This document shows positions 3,696 to 63,450 of a stretch of 64,000 nucleotides of DNA, in pieces (positions within the stretch are counted from its first letter, which is position 1; the number at the start of each line of letters is the position of its first letter). Made by a program: the position numbers and the translations under genes. Source of the stretch: Escherichia phage vB_EcoM_RZ; sequence record MW598459, one strand, 5' to 3'. The notes under the pieces were generated by a model that made no database searches, was not told the DNA's origin, and saw nothing but the letters and a program-made list of their open reading frames with translations.

Positions 3696-3731
3696 TGGAA
3701 TCATTATGCAGTGGGTCAAGGGGATTGTACA
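3696..3731 (-). promoter_or_regulatory. T4-type early (sigma70) promoter
   Basis: Minus strand TGTACA (3731-3726), 17 nt spacer, CATAAT (3708-3703), then conserved leader GATTCCATACTGAG. Confidence 0.55.
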
Positions 3732-5589: not shown

Positions 5590-6039
5590 TTAATAGCTCT
5601 GTAGAATGAATTTAAAGTTATCAGCAAGCATGCGATTCATTTCTGAAAGGGTCTGGCAATCAGAACTATGCGAGCGAGTGAACGCCATCGCAATTTGACC
5701 TTTACCATAACCAGTTGTCAGAGGTTTCATTTTAGAAACCGGGACAAACAGGACTTCATAGATAACCCCATTGTTCGCCATTGTGCGAGACAGTTGAGAA
5801 CGCTGTTTGCGGATGTGACTTAATACAGTGTCAAACCCTTGTTGTGAACGTTGGTTACCAACATAAAAACGTGCGGCAACAATACGTGATTCGCCTTCAC
5901 CTTTGACCACGAAATAAAAACCTGGTTGGGTGATAGCTTCTTTAGTTGGACGACCCGCAACATAATTACCATTATGGATGTAAGCAATAGTGGTAGCGCC
6001 AGCATTCAGTACGTCACGACGAGTCATGTAAGTAGTCAT
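5590..6039 (-). CDS. ndd: Nucleoid disruption protein Ndd
   Basis: 149 aa; ...[28 protein letters not shown]...MKPLTTG.GKGQ.A.AFTR.H.....[14 protein letters not shown] matches recalled T4 Ndd. Confidence 0.9.
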
Positions 6040-6075
6040 ATTAATTTCCTCAGTAAGTTAAAGTTTTGTGCTCCA

Positions 6076-6114
6076 GTGGGGTCATTATACTCTGACCCCA
6101 AGAGTTTGTACACT
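6076..6114 (-). promoter_or_regulatory. T4-type early promoter upstream of ndd
   Basis: Minus strand TGTACA, 17 nt, TATAAT; 44 bp identical to 17711-17754. Confidence 0.6.
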
Positions 6115-6457
6115 ATTTTTGTAGCTGTTCTAAAATAAATCCGCTGGTGTAAAGGCTTGCATTATACAGGCGGTCAAGAGACAACGAATCCAATCTATAA
6201 GCTTCACGAATTGCATTAATAACACTTTCATAACTTGTATAATAAACATCACGATAATCGCGGTCCATAGTCATGCGGAACTTAATAAATTTGTAGAAAC
6301 CAGTTTCAGGGTCCTGATAGAATGCAAATTCTGCAGACATCAAATTTTTAAGGTTAACAGCTTTTGTGCCACCTGAATAACTTAAATCAAATGCTTCTGA
6401 TATGCTAATCTGTTTAAAGAACATAATGTTGCGATTACCAAAAAATACTTTAGACAT
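6113..6457 (-). CDS. Hypothetical protein (114 aa)
   Basis: ORF in minus-strand array. Confidence 0.45.
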   Translation of the reverse strand: MSKVFFGNRNIMFFKQISISEAFDLSYSGGTKAVNLKNLMSAEFAFYQDPETGFYKFIKFRMTMDRDYRDVYYTSYESVINAIREAYRLDSLSLDRLYNASLYTSGFILEQLQK

Positions 6458-6467
6458 AATATTTTCC

Positions 6468-6671
6468 TTATTCAGAAATAGCCATCAGTTCATCAAAAGT
6501 AAGACACTGTACACTAGGACCTACGCAAAAACGCTTAGTTGAATCATTGAGGTATGTAGCATTAACAGGTTGTAATTCGGTCCCAACTTGGGAAGGAGAA
6601 ATACGAATAAGTTGTTGGCCATTATGCAATAGAAAGCTCTCACCGACTACTACATCTTTAAAAAGTTTCAT
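6468..6671 (-). CDS. Hypothetical protein (67 aa)
   Basis: ORF in minus-strand array. Confidence 0.4.
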   Translation of the reverse strand: MKLFKDVVVGESFLLHNGQQLIRISPSQVGTELQPVNATYLNDSTKRFCVGPSVQCLTFDELMAISE

Positions 6672-6688
6672 AATATTTTCCTCAGTAA

Positions 6689-6835
6689 TTAAAGAATTTC
6701 TTCAATTTGAATGTATTTGCTATAACCTTCCTCAATGAGGATATCACGAGCACAATCAGCACTGATATAAGCATTAAAGCTAAGGGTTTTAATCACTTTA
6801 CCATGCAGCTTTACTTTATAAATTCGATTACCCAT
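6689..6835 (-). CDS. Hypothetical protein (about 48 aa from internal Met)
   Basis: ORF 6689-6877 trimmed to the Met preceded by SD GAGGA. Confidence 0.35.
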   Translation of the reverse strand: MGNRIYKVKLHGKVIKTLSFNAYISADCARDILIEEGYSKYIQIEEIL

Positions 6836-6845
6836 AATATTTTCC

Positions 6846-6956
6846 TCAGAAGTTAAAGAATACGCGTACATGGTCAATCATAAAAACAATTGGGAAAATG
6901 CTCAGGACAACAAACAGTACAAACATGTTCCAAATGGCTTTAAGTAACTTTTTCAT
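6846..6956 (-). CDS. Small hydrophobic peptide (36 aa, not in track)
   Basis: My own translation MKKLLKAIWNMFVLFVVLSIFPIVFMIDHVRVFFNF; preceded by leader box and GGAG. Confidence 0.3.
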   Translation of the reverse strand: MKKLLKAIWNMFVLFVVLSIFPIVFMIDHVRVFFNF

Positions 6957-7101
6957 AATCATCTCCAGTAGTTGATAGGTTCATTATACTACAACCACTG
7001 GAGATGTACACTCTTTTATGCAAGGTTCAATAATAATAAACTAAAACAAACGCAAATTACTGGGATACACAACATCCAGATAAGGCACCACGTTTTGCTA
7101 C

Positions 7102-7446: not shown

Positions 7447-7559
7447 GCTGTTGCATTAATTTAAAAAATTCAGTAATATCGCCATTAACTTCAAGATATA
7501 AAGTCATTGCATATTGAGCAGGTTTCATTTTATTCTCCAGTCTGTTTGGTAACTCAGTA

Positions 7560-7600
7560 TGGAATCATTATACATAGACTCCATACTGATGTACACTACT
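7560..7600 (-). promoter_or_regulatory. T4-type early promoter
   Basis: Minus strand TGTACA, 16 nt, TATAAT, leader GATTCCATACTGAGTTACC. Confidence 0.5.
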
Positions 7601-7606
7601 TTTTAA

Positions 7607-17122: not shown

Positions 17123-17683
17123 TTAGGCAAAATGAATATCAGCATACTCAACGATAAAGCTCTCAGGAACAACCTTAAAGGTTCCAAGGAACACAATATT
17201 ATACAGTTTAACCCCTTCTTCAACCCACTGGTCGGTGATGTAACCAGACATGCTAGTGGTTTCATAAGTACCAAAAGGTTCGTCAACATATTCAAACGGT
17301 TTAGGTGAAACAAAAAAGACACCTTTGCCCAATTTCCATTTAAAATCAACCCCAACATGAGACTGGTCAATGGTTTCAACGTCTTGAGCAATTACGCCAC
17401 GGATATCATTGCTTTCGCACACATATCCATCATGGGATTCAACTTCTTCAACCACAGGGAGGTTGGCGGCAGTAATAGCAGTTGATTCCAGGAATTTAGC
17501 ACGAACATAAGCGAATTGAGTTTCAGTCTGACCATTTTTGGGAATGATACGCACCTTTACTTCATTATCAGGATGGTCAACAAAAATATCAGCACGAATA
17601 CTGACAACCTCAACAAAACGTCCAGCGGCTCTTGAACGAGATTTTTTGGATACGCGAACGATTTCGCCAGCTTCAACTTTCAT
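17123..17683 (-). CDS. Hypothetical protein (186 aa), paralog of 17763-18515
   Basis: C-terminus GYITDQWVEEGVKLYNIVFLGTFKVVPESFIVEY resembles GWVTDQWIEESVELLNVVHAGEFTVVPRSMVVEI of the neighbour. Confidence 0.5.
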   Translation of the reverse strand: MKVEAGEIVRVSKKSRSRAAGRFVEVVSIRADIFVDHPDNEVKVRIIPKNGQTETQFAYVRAKFLESTAITAANLPVVEEVESHDGYVCESNDIRGVIAQDVETIDQSHVGVDFKWKLGKGVFFVSPKPFEYVDEPFGTYETTSMSGYITDQWVEEGVKLYNIVFLGTFKVVPESFIVEYADIHFA

Positions 17684-17710
17684 AATTTTCTCTCTTGGTT
17701 AATAAGTTTA

Positions 17711-17754
17711 TTCTCCAGTGGGGTCATTATACTCTGACCCCAAGAGTTTGTACA
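17711..17754 (-). promoter_or_regulatory. T4-type early promoter (44 bp duplicate of 6071-6114)
   Basis: Minus strand TGTACA, 17 nt, TATAAT. Confidence 0.6.
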
Positions 17755-17762
17755 CTTTAAAT

Positions 17763-18515
17763 TTAATTAAAAATTTCAACAACCATGGAACGTGGTACAA
17801 CAGTAAATTCACCAGCATGGACAACGTTCAGGAGTTCAACACTCTCTTCAATCCACTGGTCTGTTACCCAACCACAAATGGAACTGTTAAATGGGCGTTT
17901 GATTTGAACTGGTTTACACAGCAAGTCAATAGGGTCACCCAGTTCGCTAACTTCTTCCAGCAGTACAGATTCACGTGGATAAAGGATAGCTTCAAGATTG
18001 TCACCTGATTCATTGACTGCAGTAAATTCAAAGATGCTTTGGTGATTGTGGTACTTAACTGTTTTAACTGTAAATGGAGCAAATCCAAAAATACCTTTCA
18101 GTACCCGCCAACCGGCATTCAATGCATTAGTATTATCAAAATCACCATATCCAACAAGTTGATAGGTTTTGTCAACTTTGATAGGAGCTTCTTCAACTTC
18201 TTTGAAGAGTTCAATCTCAGCTTCATAAACCATAATTTTTTCTACTTCATTTGTATCAAGGCGACGTGCATGCAGAATATATGCTTTATCAAACCAGTTA
18301 CTTTTTACAAAAGTTTCAACAATAAATTCACCTTCACCTAAAGCATCAGTCAGAGTATTATACCCAGAAACCATAGCTGCATTTTGAATAATAGGTTCAA
18401 TCAGTTGATAAGTTTTGTTAATTTCAATAGTCATATTTTGTTTCTCAAGTTTTAATGGTTTAATTGGGCGAACATACATACTTACAACATCAAAGTCAAT
18501 AAATTCTGGTTTCAT
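17763..18515 (-). CDS. Hypothetical protein (250 aa), paralog of 17123-17683
   Basis: Shared C-terminal motif with neighbour. Confidence 0.5.
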   Translation of the reverse strand: MKPEFIDFDVVSMYVRPIKPLKLEKQNMTIEINKTYQLIEPIIQNAAMVSGYNTLTDALGEGEFIVETFVKSNWFDKAYILHARRLDTNEVEKIMVYEAEIELFKEVEEAPIKVDKTYQLVGYGDFDNTNALNAGWRVLKGIFGFAPFTVKTVKYHNHQSIFEFTAVNESGDNLEAILYPRESVLLEEVSELGDPIDLLCKPVQIKRPFNSSICGWVTDQWIEESVELLNVVHAGEFTVVPRSMVVEIFN

Positions 18516-18796: not shown

Positions 18797-18834
18797 TGAG
18801 ATGATTATGTCTCTTTCCATTGGCCTTGTACACT
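18797..18834 (-). promoter_or_regulatory. T4-type early promoter
   Basis: Minus strand TGTACA (18832-18827), 17 nt, CATAAT (18809-18804), then leader hairpin CTCATCAACTACTGATGAGG. Confidence 0.55.
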
Positions 18835-29031: not shown

Positions 29032-29385
29032 TTAACCTCGCTTCATGAAGGCATTAAAAATCTGGTCGTCAACAGACTGTTCTTGAGCTTTGACCCAAGC
29101 TCCTTCCAGAATGTCATTCGCTTCAGTAGATATCATGACCCCAATTTCAGGGTTTCCTGTTATCCATGCTGCACAATCGCGTACATTCTTTTTATCAAAT
29201 GGATAGCCGCGAGTATCTTCATAAGGTCCATTCATTACCATAAATGAGCGAGCCTTTATGATAACATCATCTTTGACGATAATATAGCCAATCGCTTGAT
29301 TAAACCGAGGCTCACGGAATTCATAATGAGCATTACCATCATTATTGCTCACCAGTTCAAAATTCAGAAAATTATAATAACTCAT
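29032..29385 (-). CDS. Hypothetical protein (117 aa) with C-terminal tail shared with upstream neighbour
   Basis: Ends ...SVDDQIFNAFMKRG. Confidence 0.45.
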   Translation of the reverse strand: MSYYNFLNFELVSNNDGNAHYEFREPRFNQAIGYIIVKDDVIIKARSFMVMNGPYEDTRGYPFDKKNVRDCAAWITGNPEIGVMISTEANDILEGAWVKAQEQSVDDQIFNAFMKRG

Positions 29386-29386
29386 A

Positions 29387-29824
29387 CTAATCTCGCTTCA
29401 TGAAGGCATTAAAAATCTGGTCGTCAACTGAATAAACGGGGGTTTCCAGAATTTTCAAAAGACTGTTTTTGATGTACTTACCCGGGATACCCATATTAAC
29501 AATACTGTCATTCAATTCATTGTCAGGGTTGATGTCTTTAAATTCAAACCCATCAAATTCAACCTTGTCAGGAATACCATCGGCGAAAAAATAAACCAAT
29601 TGGTGCATTGTATTGCACGAAAATAATTTGGACTTGACCGCAATAAGTTCTTGCCAATGGTTTAATTCTTTGTTAAGGAGTTTATGGGCAAACGTAATTC
29701 TATTATCACTATCAACAAGAAAATAACCCAGGTATTGAAGGTCGTCGCTCCAAAACGCCCTGTATGCTTGTGCATTTGGATTTTTACAACGAAGTTTTTT
29801 GATAACTAAATTTCTGTTAATCAT
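29387..29824 (-). CDS. Hypothetical protein (about 146 aa) with the same C-terminal tail
   Basis: Ends ...SVDDQIFNAFMKRD; start trimmed to avoid overlap with sp. Confidence 0.45.
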   Translation of the reverse strand: MINRNLVIKKLRCKNPNAQAYRAFWSDDLQYLGYFLVDSDNRITFAHKLLNKELNHWQELIAVKSKLFSCNTMHQLVYFFADGIPDKVEFDGFEFKDINPDNELNDSIVNMGIPGKYIKNSLLKILETPVYSVDDQIFNAFMKRD

Positions 29825-29825
29825 T

Positions 29826-30119
29826 TTATTCACCTGTAACCCATTGAACAATTTTGCTATTGTCAAATGAAGCATCGCAATACAGAACATAGTTATACTG
29901 CATAACGTCACCAGAAGTCAATTGGTCAGATACTTCTTTAACCATATCAGGGCGGTCACGTTTAGTAATATTCATGATATCAGCATAAATCTGATGTTCA
30001 ACATCAGTCTGGTCAGCAGTCATAGACCACTCACAAAGGTCTTTATCAAGTCCAGCAGTAACTGGAGCTGTACCACATGATGCTACGGTAAGAATTGCTG
30101 CGATTAATAACTTTTTCAT
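29826..30119 (-). CDS. sp: Spackle periplasmic protein
   Basis: 97 aa with N-terminal signal peptide MKKLLIAAILTVASCG; size and position as T4 sp. Confidence 0.7.
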   Translation of the reverse strand: MKKLLIAAILTVASCGTAPVTAGLDKDLCEWSMTADQTDVEHQIYADIMNITKRDRPDMVKEVSDQLTSGDVMQYNYVLYCDASFDNSKIVQWVTGE

Positions 30120-31399: not shown

Positions 31400-31419
31400 T
31401 TTATTATCCTCATCAGTAG

Positions 31420-31462
31420 TTGATGGGATAATAGTACACCCTTTTTATGGTGATGTAAACAC
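31420..31462 (-). promoter_or_regulatory. T4-type early promoter
   Basis: Minus strand GTTTAC (31460-31455), about 17 nt, TACTAT, then CCCATCAACTACTGATGAGGA leader. Confidence 0.5.
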
Positions 31463-31469
31463 CCTAAAT

Positions 31470-31492
31470 GAAAAAGACCCGAAGGTCTTTAG
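31470..31492 (-). terminator. Rho-independent terminator downstream of gene 41
   Basis: GACC-CGAA-GGTC hairpin with flanking A and T runs. Confidence 0.5.
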
Positions 31493-40652: not shown

Positions 40653-40708
40653 ATATTTTCCTCATATTAGTTTCTACTTTGTACTCCATGGGGCCGAAGC
40701 CCCATTTA

Positions 40709-47547: not shown

Positions 47548-47788
47548 TTAAGTAGTCCAGGAATTCGTCTAATGTCATGCCTTCCGCCCAAGCTATTTTA
47601 GGGTCAGGCATTTTCATATAAGTGGTCTTAGAGCTTATAGGAAGTATCCTGAAATCATAATGACTTCCACGTAGCCTCTTAGCCTCTTTTATAATAGTTT
47701 CACTATTAACCATCATAGATGTACGTTGGAAACCAGATAAAGCTTTAAGGACGATTATGGCTGATACACCTTCTGGTAAATTATTCAT
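47540..47788 (-). CDS. Hypothetical protein (82 aa)
   Basis: ORF in minus-strand array. Confidence 0.4.
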   Translation of the reverse strand: MNNLPEGVSAIIVLKALSGFQRTSMMVNSETIIKEAKRLRGSHYDFRILPISSKTTYMKMPDPKIAWAEGMTLDEFLDYLND

Positions 47789-48111
47789 TTCGCACCCTTA
47801 ACAATTTTCAGGTCAACAAAACCTTTCTTGCGCTGGGACTTCATACGCTTGATAGCTTTATCAGAAACTTCTTTGTTTTCGCGCAGAAGCGGCAGACCAA
47901 ACGCTACTACATCAAATTCGTTCAGGATATACTGGACAAGGCTTTCACGAATACGCGCTTTACCCATTGTCTGACCTTCTGCAATAATCAACTTCTGTAC
48001 ATCGCCTTCCCACTGGTCCAGAATCTCAGGGGTAACGAAACCAGATTTCATCAGAGTGTTAACTTTAGCAAATGCGAAATTAGCGATGGTGTTAGTGATA
48101 GATGCAGTCAT
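47785..48111 (-). CDS. Hypothetical protein (108 aa)
   Basis: ORF in minus-strand array. Confidence 0.45.
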   Translation of the reverse strand: MTASITNTIANFAFAKVNTLMKSGFVTPEILDQWEGDVQKLIIAEGQTMGKARIRESLVQYILNEFDVVAFGLPLLRENKEVSDKAIKRMKSQRKKGFVDLKIVKGAK

Positions 48112-48183
48112 GATATATTCCTCAGTCTCATTAAATTAAAATTTTATTATCCTAGGGTCATTATACCATGACCCCGTTGGTTT

Positions 48184-48381
48184 TTACTGCGCTTTAGCGC
48201 CTTTCCAACCTTCATACATCATTGCGGCGGAAATTAATATTGCTCCTGCACATTTTGAATAATAGAGATTCCAAAACCAGTTTAGAAAAACTTCATCATC
48301 AATACCTTGAGCTATCATATTTTCAAAGAACTGACGACGAGATTCAGCAATTCGCTGTGATAATTTAGATTCAGGATTCAT
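48184..48381 (-). CDS. Hypothetical protein (65 aa)
   Basis: ORF in minus-strand array. Confidence 0.4.
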   Translation of the reverse strand: MNPESKLSQRIAESRRQFFENMIAQGIDDEVFLNWFWNLYYSKCAGAILISAAMMYEGWKGAKAQ

Positions 48382-58497: not shown

Positions 58498-58527
58498 TTT
58501 ATTCTCCAGTATTTGGTAACTCAGTAT

Positions 58528-58565
58528 GGGAACATTATACGTCTATCCCCATACCATGTACACAT
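58528..58565 (-). promoter_or_regulatory. T4-type early promoter
   Basis: Minus strand TGTACA, 18 nt, TATAAT, leader CCCATACTGAGTTACC. Confidence 0.45.
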
Positions 58566-63348: not shown

Positions 63349-63369
63349 TGTATTCTCCTCAGTAGTTGA

Positions 63370-63410
63370 TGGGATAATAGTACACCCTTTTTATAAGGAT
63401 GTAAACCCCC
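63370..63410 (-). promoter_or_regulatory. T4-type early promoter
   Basis: Minus strand GTTTAC, about 17 nt, TACTAT, then CCCATCAACTACTGAGGAG leader. Confidence 0.5.
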
Positions 63411-63414
63411 TAAA

Positions 63415-63450
63415 TGAAAAAAGGTCCACCCGAAGGCAGACCTTTTGAAT
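63415..63450 (-). terminator. Rho-independent terminator
   Basis: A-run, AAGGTC...GACCTT hairpin, T-run. Confidence 0.5.

Follow-up and report, generated by a model that had tools for sequence, protein, structure and literature searches.

The longest exact repeat of a T-even phage genome segment is most likely a conserved PeSL-type early promoter cassette with a hairpin around its -10 element

The longest exact repeat in the window analysed here (the whole stretch of phage DNA, 64 kb) is a 44-mer with promoter elements, present at two distant places, which raises the question of whether it is a rearrangement scar, an assembly error or a functional regulatory element. The window comes from a T-even phage ~94% identical to Gaprivervirus-like isolates (TH55, DK-13, Yersinia phage P8, VR20/25/26, SP18), and all genes of the region are on the minus strand. 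The 44-mer, CTCCAGTGGGGTCATTATACTCTGACCCCAAGAGTTTGTACACT (on the minus strand, AGTGTACAAACTCTTGGGGTCAGAGTATAATGACCCCACTGGAG), occurs exactly twice in the window, on the same (+) strand, at 6071-6114 and 17713-17756. The original prediction of an exact 44-nt identity at two sites was therefore right, as were its coordinates for the first copy; those given for the second (17711-17754) were 2 nt too low. None of 100 dinucleotide-preserving shuffles of the window contained a match to the 44-mer, and the identical sequence is present at both loci in more than 30 independently sequenced relatives. A chance origin is rejected on both grounds, and the agreement of both loci in the relatives also disposes of the assembly artefact that had been considered as an alternative. 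The next longest exact repeats of the window measure 37, 36, 29, 28 and 27 nt; apart from the first, they are promoter/leader cassettes. The 37-nt exception, a direct repeat (29037-29073 / 29392-29428), encodes the C-terminus SVDDQIFNAFMKR common to two adjacent minus-strand ORFs (29032..29385 and 29387..29911), which are probably tandem paralogs or products of an exchange of a C-terminal module.

Copy 1 (6071..6114, minus strand; referred to as Pndd) is located between the stop codon of a 114-aa ORF and ndd (5590..6039, minus strand, 149 aa; Pfam Phage_T4_Ndd, E = 9e-69). It makes up most of the 73-nt intergenic gap and overlaps the stop codon of the upstream ORF (6113-6115). Copy 2 (17713..17756, minus strand; PmotB), an ortholog of the T4 motB early promoter, takes up the greater part of a 79-nt gap between a motB.1-like ORF, whose stop codon (17763-17765) is 7 nt off the repeat, and motB (17123..17683, minus strand, 186 aa; Pfam motB, E = 1.5e-57). 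Allowing 2 mismatches extends the similarity of the copies to 50 nt (6065-6114 / 17707-17756, 96%). The flanks, which had been suggested as a place to look for extended homology, revealed none past these 50 nt.

The coding strand of the cassette is laid out as AG TGTACA AACTCT-TGGGGTCA-GAG TATAAT GACCCCA CT GGAG. The -35 hexamers TGTACA (6107..6112 in Pndd and 17749..17754 in PmotB) and the -10 hexamers TATAAT (6084..6089 and 17726..17731), all on the minus strand, are separated by 17 nt in both copies and match the consensus at 10 of 12 positions each, exactly the arrangement that had been read from the two sites. The -35 is of the T4 type GT(G/T)TACA, and its GTGTAC is one change away from GTTTAC, the T4 early -35 consensus (PMC1524935). 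In T4-type early promoters a GTTTAC-like -35 occupies -36 to -31, and the -40s region is A-rich. The 25 nt on the 5' side of the -35 hexamers are 80% and 92% A+T, and the genes downstream are ndd and motB. The cassettes thus have the -35, the -10, the A-rich upstream tract and the early genes on the 3' side that characterize the sequence of T4-type early promoters, which bears out their earlier interpretation as promoters of minus-strand early genes and specifies them as sigma-70-type. Transcription is predicted, from sequence, to start ~7 nt past the -10, at the A of CCCCA (~6077 in copy 1). Both cassettes would act as strong sigma-70 early promoters that fire right after infection and direct the expression of the host-takeover genes ndd and motB; immediate-early firing is suggested by the sequence and by orthology to the mapped T4 motB promoter. 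The inter-copy identity does, as noticed before, continue past the -35 and -10 hexamers. It ends at GGAG, where the leaders diverge (AATAAAC... for motB, CACAAAA... for ndd) over the 25-35 nt that lead to the Shine-Dalgarno sequence of each gene.

Part of the identity outside the hexamers is an 8-bp inverted repeat (TGGGGTCA/TGACCCCA) that brackets the -10, with the 3' arm running from the last T of TATAAT to the expected start. In copy 1 the hairpin spans 6077..6100 on the minus strand (arms 6093-6100 and 6077-6084), and its 8-nt loop contains most of the -10; the equivalent in copy 2 spans 17719..17742, also on the minus strand (arms 17735-17742 and 17719-17726). As RNA, it folds with -14.6 kcal/mol (z = -5.1 vs shuffles). 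Since the 5' arm is upstream of the start, the hairpin can be present only in sense RNA reading through from upstream promoters, candidate sources being, for example, those at 6983-7010 and 18804-18832. The only terminator-like site between upstream promoters and the cassettes is a weak intragenic one at 6250-6262 (5 pairs, of chance-level frequency). A third, diverged member of the family is found at 48142..48175 on the minus strand (similarity region 48141-48190), upstream of a DUF7570 gene (47785..48111). Its hairpin, GGGGTCA-TGGTATAA-TGACCCT, surrounds an extended -10 (TGnTATAAT) and is followed by A and GGATAATAAAA.

To follow the hairpin across phages, we searched IMG/VR with the flanks fixed and 14 stem positions free, kept the matches with the TAC of a -35 on the 5' side, and supplemented this family, found upstream of several genes, with members from other fetched loci. 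The PmotB loci were taken from this DNA-pattern search, as tblastn with the motB protein matched the motB.1-like paralog and therefore did not return the promoters. The family comprises ten distinct arm combinations (GGGGTCA/TGACCCC, GGGGCCA/TGGTCCC, GGGGCCG/TGGCCCC, GGGACCA/TGGTCC(C/T), GGGATCA/TGGTCCT, GGGAGCA/TGCTCC(C/T), GGGAGCA/TGTTCCC and GAGAGCA/TGCTCTC), with 70 of 70 cells paired. In a 17-row alignment, into which two rows, the JS98-like Pndd and the third copy of the window, were taken once they had been seen to pair, 99.3% of the cells pair, and changes on both sides are observed in 6 of 8 pairs. The observed covariation, which samples few lineages and perhaps 6-8 independent substitution events, was equalled by none of 500 shuffles, and sliding the partner by 1-3 columns reduced pairing to 29-47%. 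In the JS98-like Pndd, the stem is an unrelated one (GAGAATCA/TGGTTCTC) that occupies the identical register. All of the wobble cells (16 of 16) are G.U or U.G in the sense orientation and none is A.C, which implies a single-stranded sense molecule rather than a duplex operator or a two-strand cruciform. This comparative analysis points to a hairpin selected as a sense-strand RNA structure in read-through RNA. A known RNA family was rejected, as a search of the whole window against Rfam gave no match at the gathering score and only a chance-level one (E = 0.38) around copy 2.

A hairpin around the -10 is a property of only ~6 of the 21 early promoters of the window, so the idea that all early promoters here have one was rejected. 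The permutation p value of 0.007 for this association is inflated by sequence families, and promoters of this kind are accordingly regarded as a subclass and not as the rule. Several other early promoters and leaders of the window have structures of their own. The minus-strand early promoter at 6955-7010 (TGTACA-16-TATAAT) has a spacer, CTCCAGTGGTTG, that pairs with the leader CAACTACTGGAG (12 bp, one G.U), leaving the -10 in the loop and sequestering the Shine-Dalgarno GGAG of the next ORF in read-through RNA only, a design that follows the logic of T4 gene e and soc on an early promoter. The same Shine-Dalgarno-sequestering design is seen in RB69 motB.2 (-27.8 kcal/mol). In the minus-strand early promoters at 7538-7602 and 58510-58562, 13-bp helices bracket the -10 (the spacer pairing with a leader, GATTCCATACTGA / GTTCCCATACTG), their register being close to that of the ndd/motB hairpin. 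Promoter-proximal leader modules of two further families, GATTCCATACTGAGTTACC and ATCCCATCAACTACTGA(T)GAGGA, are repeated many times, with -10s at 3703, 7567, 22167, 31122, 58534 and 59123, and at 18804, 30148, 30728, 31431, 35705, 49276 and 63377; a leader-only copy that goes with the latter group is at ~22901. The ATCCCATCAACTACTGA(T)GAGGA module has a CAUCA/UGAUG hairpin immediately 5' of GGAUAAUAAAA-UG, and one pair of leader modules (31405-31475 / 63351-63421) is 92% identical over 71 nt.

The combination of an early promoter with a stem-loop has a precedent in the PeSLs ('promoter-early stem-loops') defined by Arbiol et al. 2010 (PMC2839356) and Comeau et al. 2014 (PMC4122927). These elements recur between genes, and each joins an A/T-rich tract to a sigma-70-like early promoter and to a stem-loop of the G-tract/C-tract kind. 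Of the five positional subclasses distinguished, the commonest place the stem-loop in the -35/-10 spacer or across the -10 box (PMC2839356), and PeSLs are described as bordering indels and recombining into mini-circles (PMC2839356; PMC4122927). At the sequence level, all PeSL characteristics were found in the window: promoter, A/T-rich tract, stem-loop around the -10, intergenic site, repetition and plasticity. As in the PeSLs described, the cassette includes the Shine-Dalgarno sequence and ATG of the next gene and is present several times per genome in plastic early regions, and as in phi1 and RB49 the stem-loop overlaps the -10 and copies border gene replacements between relatives. On the other hand, the PeSL accounts deal with RB49/phi1, PST/T4 and nt-1/KVP40, not with this genus; the PST/T4 stems are placed just upstream of the promoter, whereas the stem in the window is around the -10; and covariation with G.U in the sense strand only, as well as a GGA(G/U) within 1-4 nt, are points made here that do not appear in the available text of the PeSL papers. 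We consider it highly probable that both 44-mers represent a conserved PeSL-type early promoter cassette, orthologous/paralogous to T4 PmotB, with a selected sense-strand hairpin. The feature fits a further case of the known PeSL class, of the subclass with a stem-loop overlapping the -10. In our literature search, which covered papers other than older subscription ones, dyads around the -10 of T4 early promoters were described only in the PeSL papers.

The window has three family copies and its relatives have three to four; roughly 700 T-even genomes have matches. In P8, DK-13 and VR26 a fourth copy precedes the 114-aa gene, at the place where the window has a replaced segment (6469-6832). 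The corresponding segments of P8 and DK-13 (L001 3969-4472 / L002 3968-4471) have other small ORFs, and the fourth family promoter of these two phages has the stem GGGAGCA/TGTTCCC. A repeated ribosome-binding module, CTGAGGAAAATATTATG (6669-6690, 6833-6854), is found at the breakpoints of the replacement. In JS98-like phages the same cassette is located before three different genes.

In T4, the cassette matches a single place, directly upstream of motB (TAGTTTACAAACTCTTGGGACCAGAGTATAATGGTCCCGTGGAGTATAAAATC; promoter GTTTACAAACTCTTGGGACCAGAGTATAATGGTCCCGTGGAG), and the legend of Fig. 5 in PMC1702504 reports 5' ends from the T4 motB promoter mapped by primer extension. PmotB of the window shares with it the orthologous position, 83% identity over 58 nt, the -35/spacer/-10 layout, the register of the hairpin and a GGAG plus A-rich site, distinct from the Shine-Dalgarno sequence, 2-3 nt past the stem. 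The differences are two compensated pairs in the stem (GGGACCA/TGGTCCC in T4 vs GGGGTCA/TGACCCC in the window), the -35 (GTTTACA vs GTGTACA) and the A-rich part (UAUAAAA vs AAUAAAC). Unlike the window, T4 has one cassette copy only, and its ndd gene is preceded by a promoter-less hairpin with GGAG. The RB69 PmotB was rejected as a member, as it lacks a -10-bracketing hairpin and has instead a spacer hairpin and a single GGAGTATAAA; the family thus does not extend to Mosigvirus. The RB69 motB promoter (L077 8319-8360 vs T4 L003 7149-7206) resembles that of T4 minus 18 nt between two GAGTATAA repeats, and its GGAGTATAAA appears to double as a -10 (TATAAA) and a RegB-like site.

Two other types of element invite comparison. 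In T4 gene e and other lysis genes (PMC3014915), a promoter also lies within a hairpin, and the internally started RNA is devoid of the 5' arm that long read-through RNA contains together with the rest of the hairpin. In the gene e type, however, the internal promoter is late (or middle) and the hairpin sequesters the ribosome-binding site, while in the window cassette the promoter is early, the 8-bp stem ends before the start and the Shine-Dalgarno sequence is untouched. The T4 promoters of soc, 49 and I-TevI are embedded in hairpins as well. Like an intrinsic terminator, the cassette places a G+C-rich stem-loop at a cistron's end in the sense RNA, but it lacks the U-tract.

Both hairpins are closely followed by a RegB-like sequence. 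The ndd leader contains GGAG + CACAAAA (6064..6074, minus strand), distinct from the Shine-Dalgarno sequence, and the motB leader contains GGAGAATAAAC (17706..17716, minus strand), the ortholog of the T4 motB RegB site GGAGUAUAAAA. In T4, the GGAG of the motB leader is efficiently cut by RegB in vivo and in vitro (Durand et al. 2006, PMC1702504); this cleavage needs no base 5' of GG and depends on the 7 following A-rich nucleotides (PMC1702504). The RegB/S1 consensus is GGAGAAUAAAA, that is, an unstructured GGAG (rarely GGAU) with A at positions 6, 8 and 11 and C excluded (PMC1702504; review PMC3014915). The motB site of the window (GGAGAAUAAAC) matches this consensus at 10 of 11 positions. 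In the ndd-leader site (GGAGCACAAAA), positions 5 and 7 are C, a base that the cleaved T4 sites do not show there (PMC1702504), so that cleavage of this site by RegB is doubtful. Fold prediction leaves both GGAG sites unpaired in promoter-proximal RNA. A regB gene was not found within the window; the close relative P479 has a RegB homolog (60% amino-acid identity).

In every family member GGA(G/T) begins 1-4 nt past the stem, the third window copy having A and GGAUAAUAAAA after it. The ndd loci of Tequatrovirus (L069-L074) have no ndd promoter and nonetheless contain a hairpin, GGCCGC/GCGGCC, followed by UU/AU and the RegB-consensus-like GGAGUAGAAAA. This hairpin is located ~40-70 nt upstream of ndd, with variable loops and sense-strand U.G variants. 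The generalization that RegB-like sites are preceded by hairpins was rejected, upstream hairpins being not significantly enriched next to the 13 RegB-like sites of the window (p = 0.27). A further hairpin with GGAG is present at ~40677-40705 (minus strand), where a GGGGC-UUCG-GCCCC tetraloop hairpin is followed by AU and GGAGUACAAAG. The RegB consensus, GGAGAAUAAA, also resembles an extended -10, GAGTATAAT.

The invariable placement of GGA(G/T) 1-4 nt past the stem, together with the promoter-less hairpin-GGAG of T4, leads us to read the hairpin and GGAG as one RNA module, and we tentatively propose that it serves in RNA insulation and processing. The transcript from the cassette would start 3 nt before GGAG and the A-rich RegB-type site. 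In read-through RNA, RegB would cut GG^AG just past the hairpin, which would leave the upstream message with a 3' hairpin and a tail of 3-6 nt, presumably a poor substrate for 3' exonucleases and hence a protected end, while the motB or ndd message on the 3' side would begin with a 5'-OH and be inactivated early. More speculatively, and in our estimate rather unlikely, hairpin + GGA(G/U) might be a dedicated 'punctuation' module of T-even early operons, whose site is hidden in read-through RNA (CUCU:GGAG) and exposed in promoter-proximal RNA. If so, a RegB cut would cap the 3' end of the upstream cistron so that it resists exonucleases and would commit the downstream cistron to decay. The fate of a gene's transcript would then depend on the promoter from which it came, and what precedes ndd in T4, a promoter-less hairpin + GGAG, would be this module lacking the promoter.

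The function favored by the PeSL authors is that of a terminator or attenuator shielding the downstream promoter from upstream early transcription. This we regard as unlikely for the present hairpin, albeit worth serious consideration: the stem-loop is intergenic and directly past the upstream stop codon, selection acts on the sense strand, the stem is of the G-tract/C-tract kind known from RB49/phi1 PeSLs, and one RB49 stem-loop cut lacZ expression as much as rrnB T1 (PMC2839356). However, the RB49 stem-loop in that reporter was a different one, and its effect could also be explained by RNA processing. Moreover, none of the family members has a U-run after the stem (ACUGGAG, GUGGAG, ACGGAUUAUAAAA), and a terminator scan flagged neither copy, observations on which an intrinsic terminator was rejected.

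Alternatively, the hairpin could gate RegB. An extension of the read-through helix, formed by CUCU of the spacer with GGAG (with a 1-2-nt bulge), would hide the site, and only RNA from the cassette promoter would be cut. The minimum-free-energy folds of both copies include the extension, the same pairing is possible in T4 PmotB, and secondary structure is known to inhibit RegB (PMC3014915; PMC1702504). Nevertheless, we judge gating improbable. The CTCTT was fixed in the search pattern and hence is outside the covariation test, in GGAU members only three of the four pairs are left, the pairing is absent altogether from the JS98-like Pndd and the third copy of the window, and cleavage in vivo may act on nascent RNA before structures form (PMC1702504).

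A different explanation concerns not the hairpin but the repeat as such, namely that a recent duplication or transposition of the promoter left two copies whose identity reflects youth rather than function, as the original prediction had suggested. It would account for the 44-mer being the longest exact repeat of the window, and full identity is indeed lineage-specific, the PmotB stems of VR25, VR26 and DK-13 being different. The phylogenetic distribution largely refutes it. Every Gaprivervirus genome examined has the cassette at both loci. T4 PmotB is the ortholog of the motB copy, with the 83% identity over 58 nt reported above; and the ndd copy, besides occurring in these genomes, is found in Enterobacter/Kosakonia phages and in another lineage, whose Ndd is 58-60% identical (L005/L022). 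The homology between the copies ends within 50 nt, no terminal repeats, target duplications or mobile-element genes were found at either of them, and 'identical' and 'non-identical' PmotB alleles are only 3 bases apart. A recent duplication is, overall, very improbable. Least credible of all is that the inverted repeat functions as DNA, either as an operator at which a dimeric protein would turn off the promoter or as a cruciform exposing the -10, for even though the -10 lies at the centre of a perfect 7-8-bp dyad and early promoter shut-off in T4 is not fully explained (PMC2988021), at least 10 arm combinations with always mutually compensating changes occur in closely related phages, the sense-only G.T intermediates (never A.C) form an asymmetry unexpected for a duplex operator or a cruciform, and an 8-bp stem with an 8-nt loop is poor in cruciform extrusion.

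The perfect identity of the copies is thus attributed mainly to purifying selection on every element of the cassette, the identity beyond the hexamers following from strong constraint on the covarying hairpin and GGAG. Among six members of the genus Pndd is constant, and PmotB, from the -35 to the ATG, varies at stem bases only, with the states GGGGTCA/TGACCCC (window, P8, VR20), GGGGCCA/TGGTCCC (VR25, VR26) and GGGGCCG/TGGCCCC (DK-13). The motB alleles behind this almost invariant promoter and leader are 60-75% identical. All four combinations of the stem state with the 'AG' before the -35 occur among the six members, a four-gamete pattern that implies either recurrent mutation or an exchange within ~30 bp, by recombination or gene conversion. 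Short-patch recombination or gene conversion within the cassette is plausible from these alignments. The stem bases of the two copies may have come to the same state by short-patch conversion (e.g. from Pndd) or by compensatory transitions, two routes that are indistinguishable here because C-G -> U.G -> U-A is the sole transition path.

The prediction that the repeat is a potential substrate for deletions and inversions was half right. The copies, 11,642 bp apart, are in direct orientation, so recombination between them could yield an 11.6-kb deletion or a circle but not an inversion. A query with the chimeric deletion junction found it in one piece in none of 50,697 phage records, and a natural deletion between the copies was rejected on this basis. 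For phage engineering, the repeats, which flank 11.6 kb from motB to the ndd.1-like gene (including rIIA/B and gene 39), constitute a foreseeable, rare deletion substrate.

Overall, the longest exact repeat of the window is to be seen as a functional, conserved regulatory cassette and not as a rearrangement scar or an assembly error, and several near-identical promoter cassettes are to be expected when T-even early regions are annotated. The covariation and the sense-strand G.U pairs provide evidence that PeSL stem-loops are selected as RNA, which had been proposed earlier but not shown in this way. The hairpin is also linked to the well-studied RegB site of motB, suggesting a role in mRNA processing. 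The evidence from covariation and the linkage of hairpin and GGAG add modestly to a known class of phage elements.
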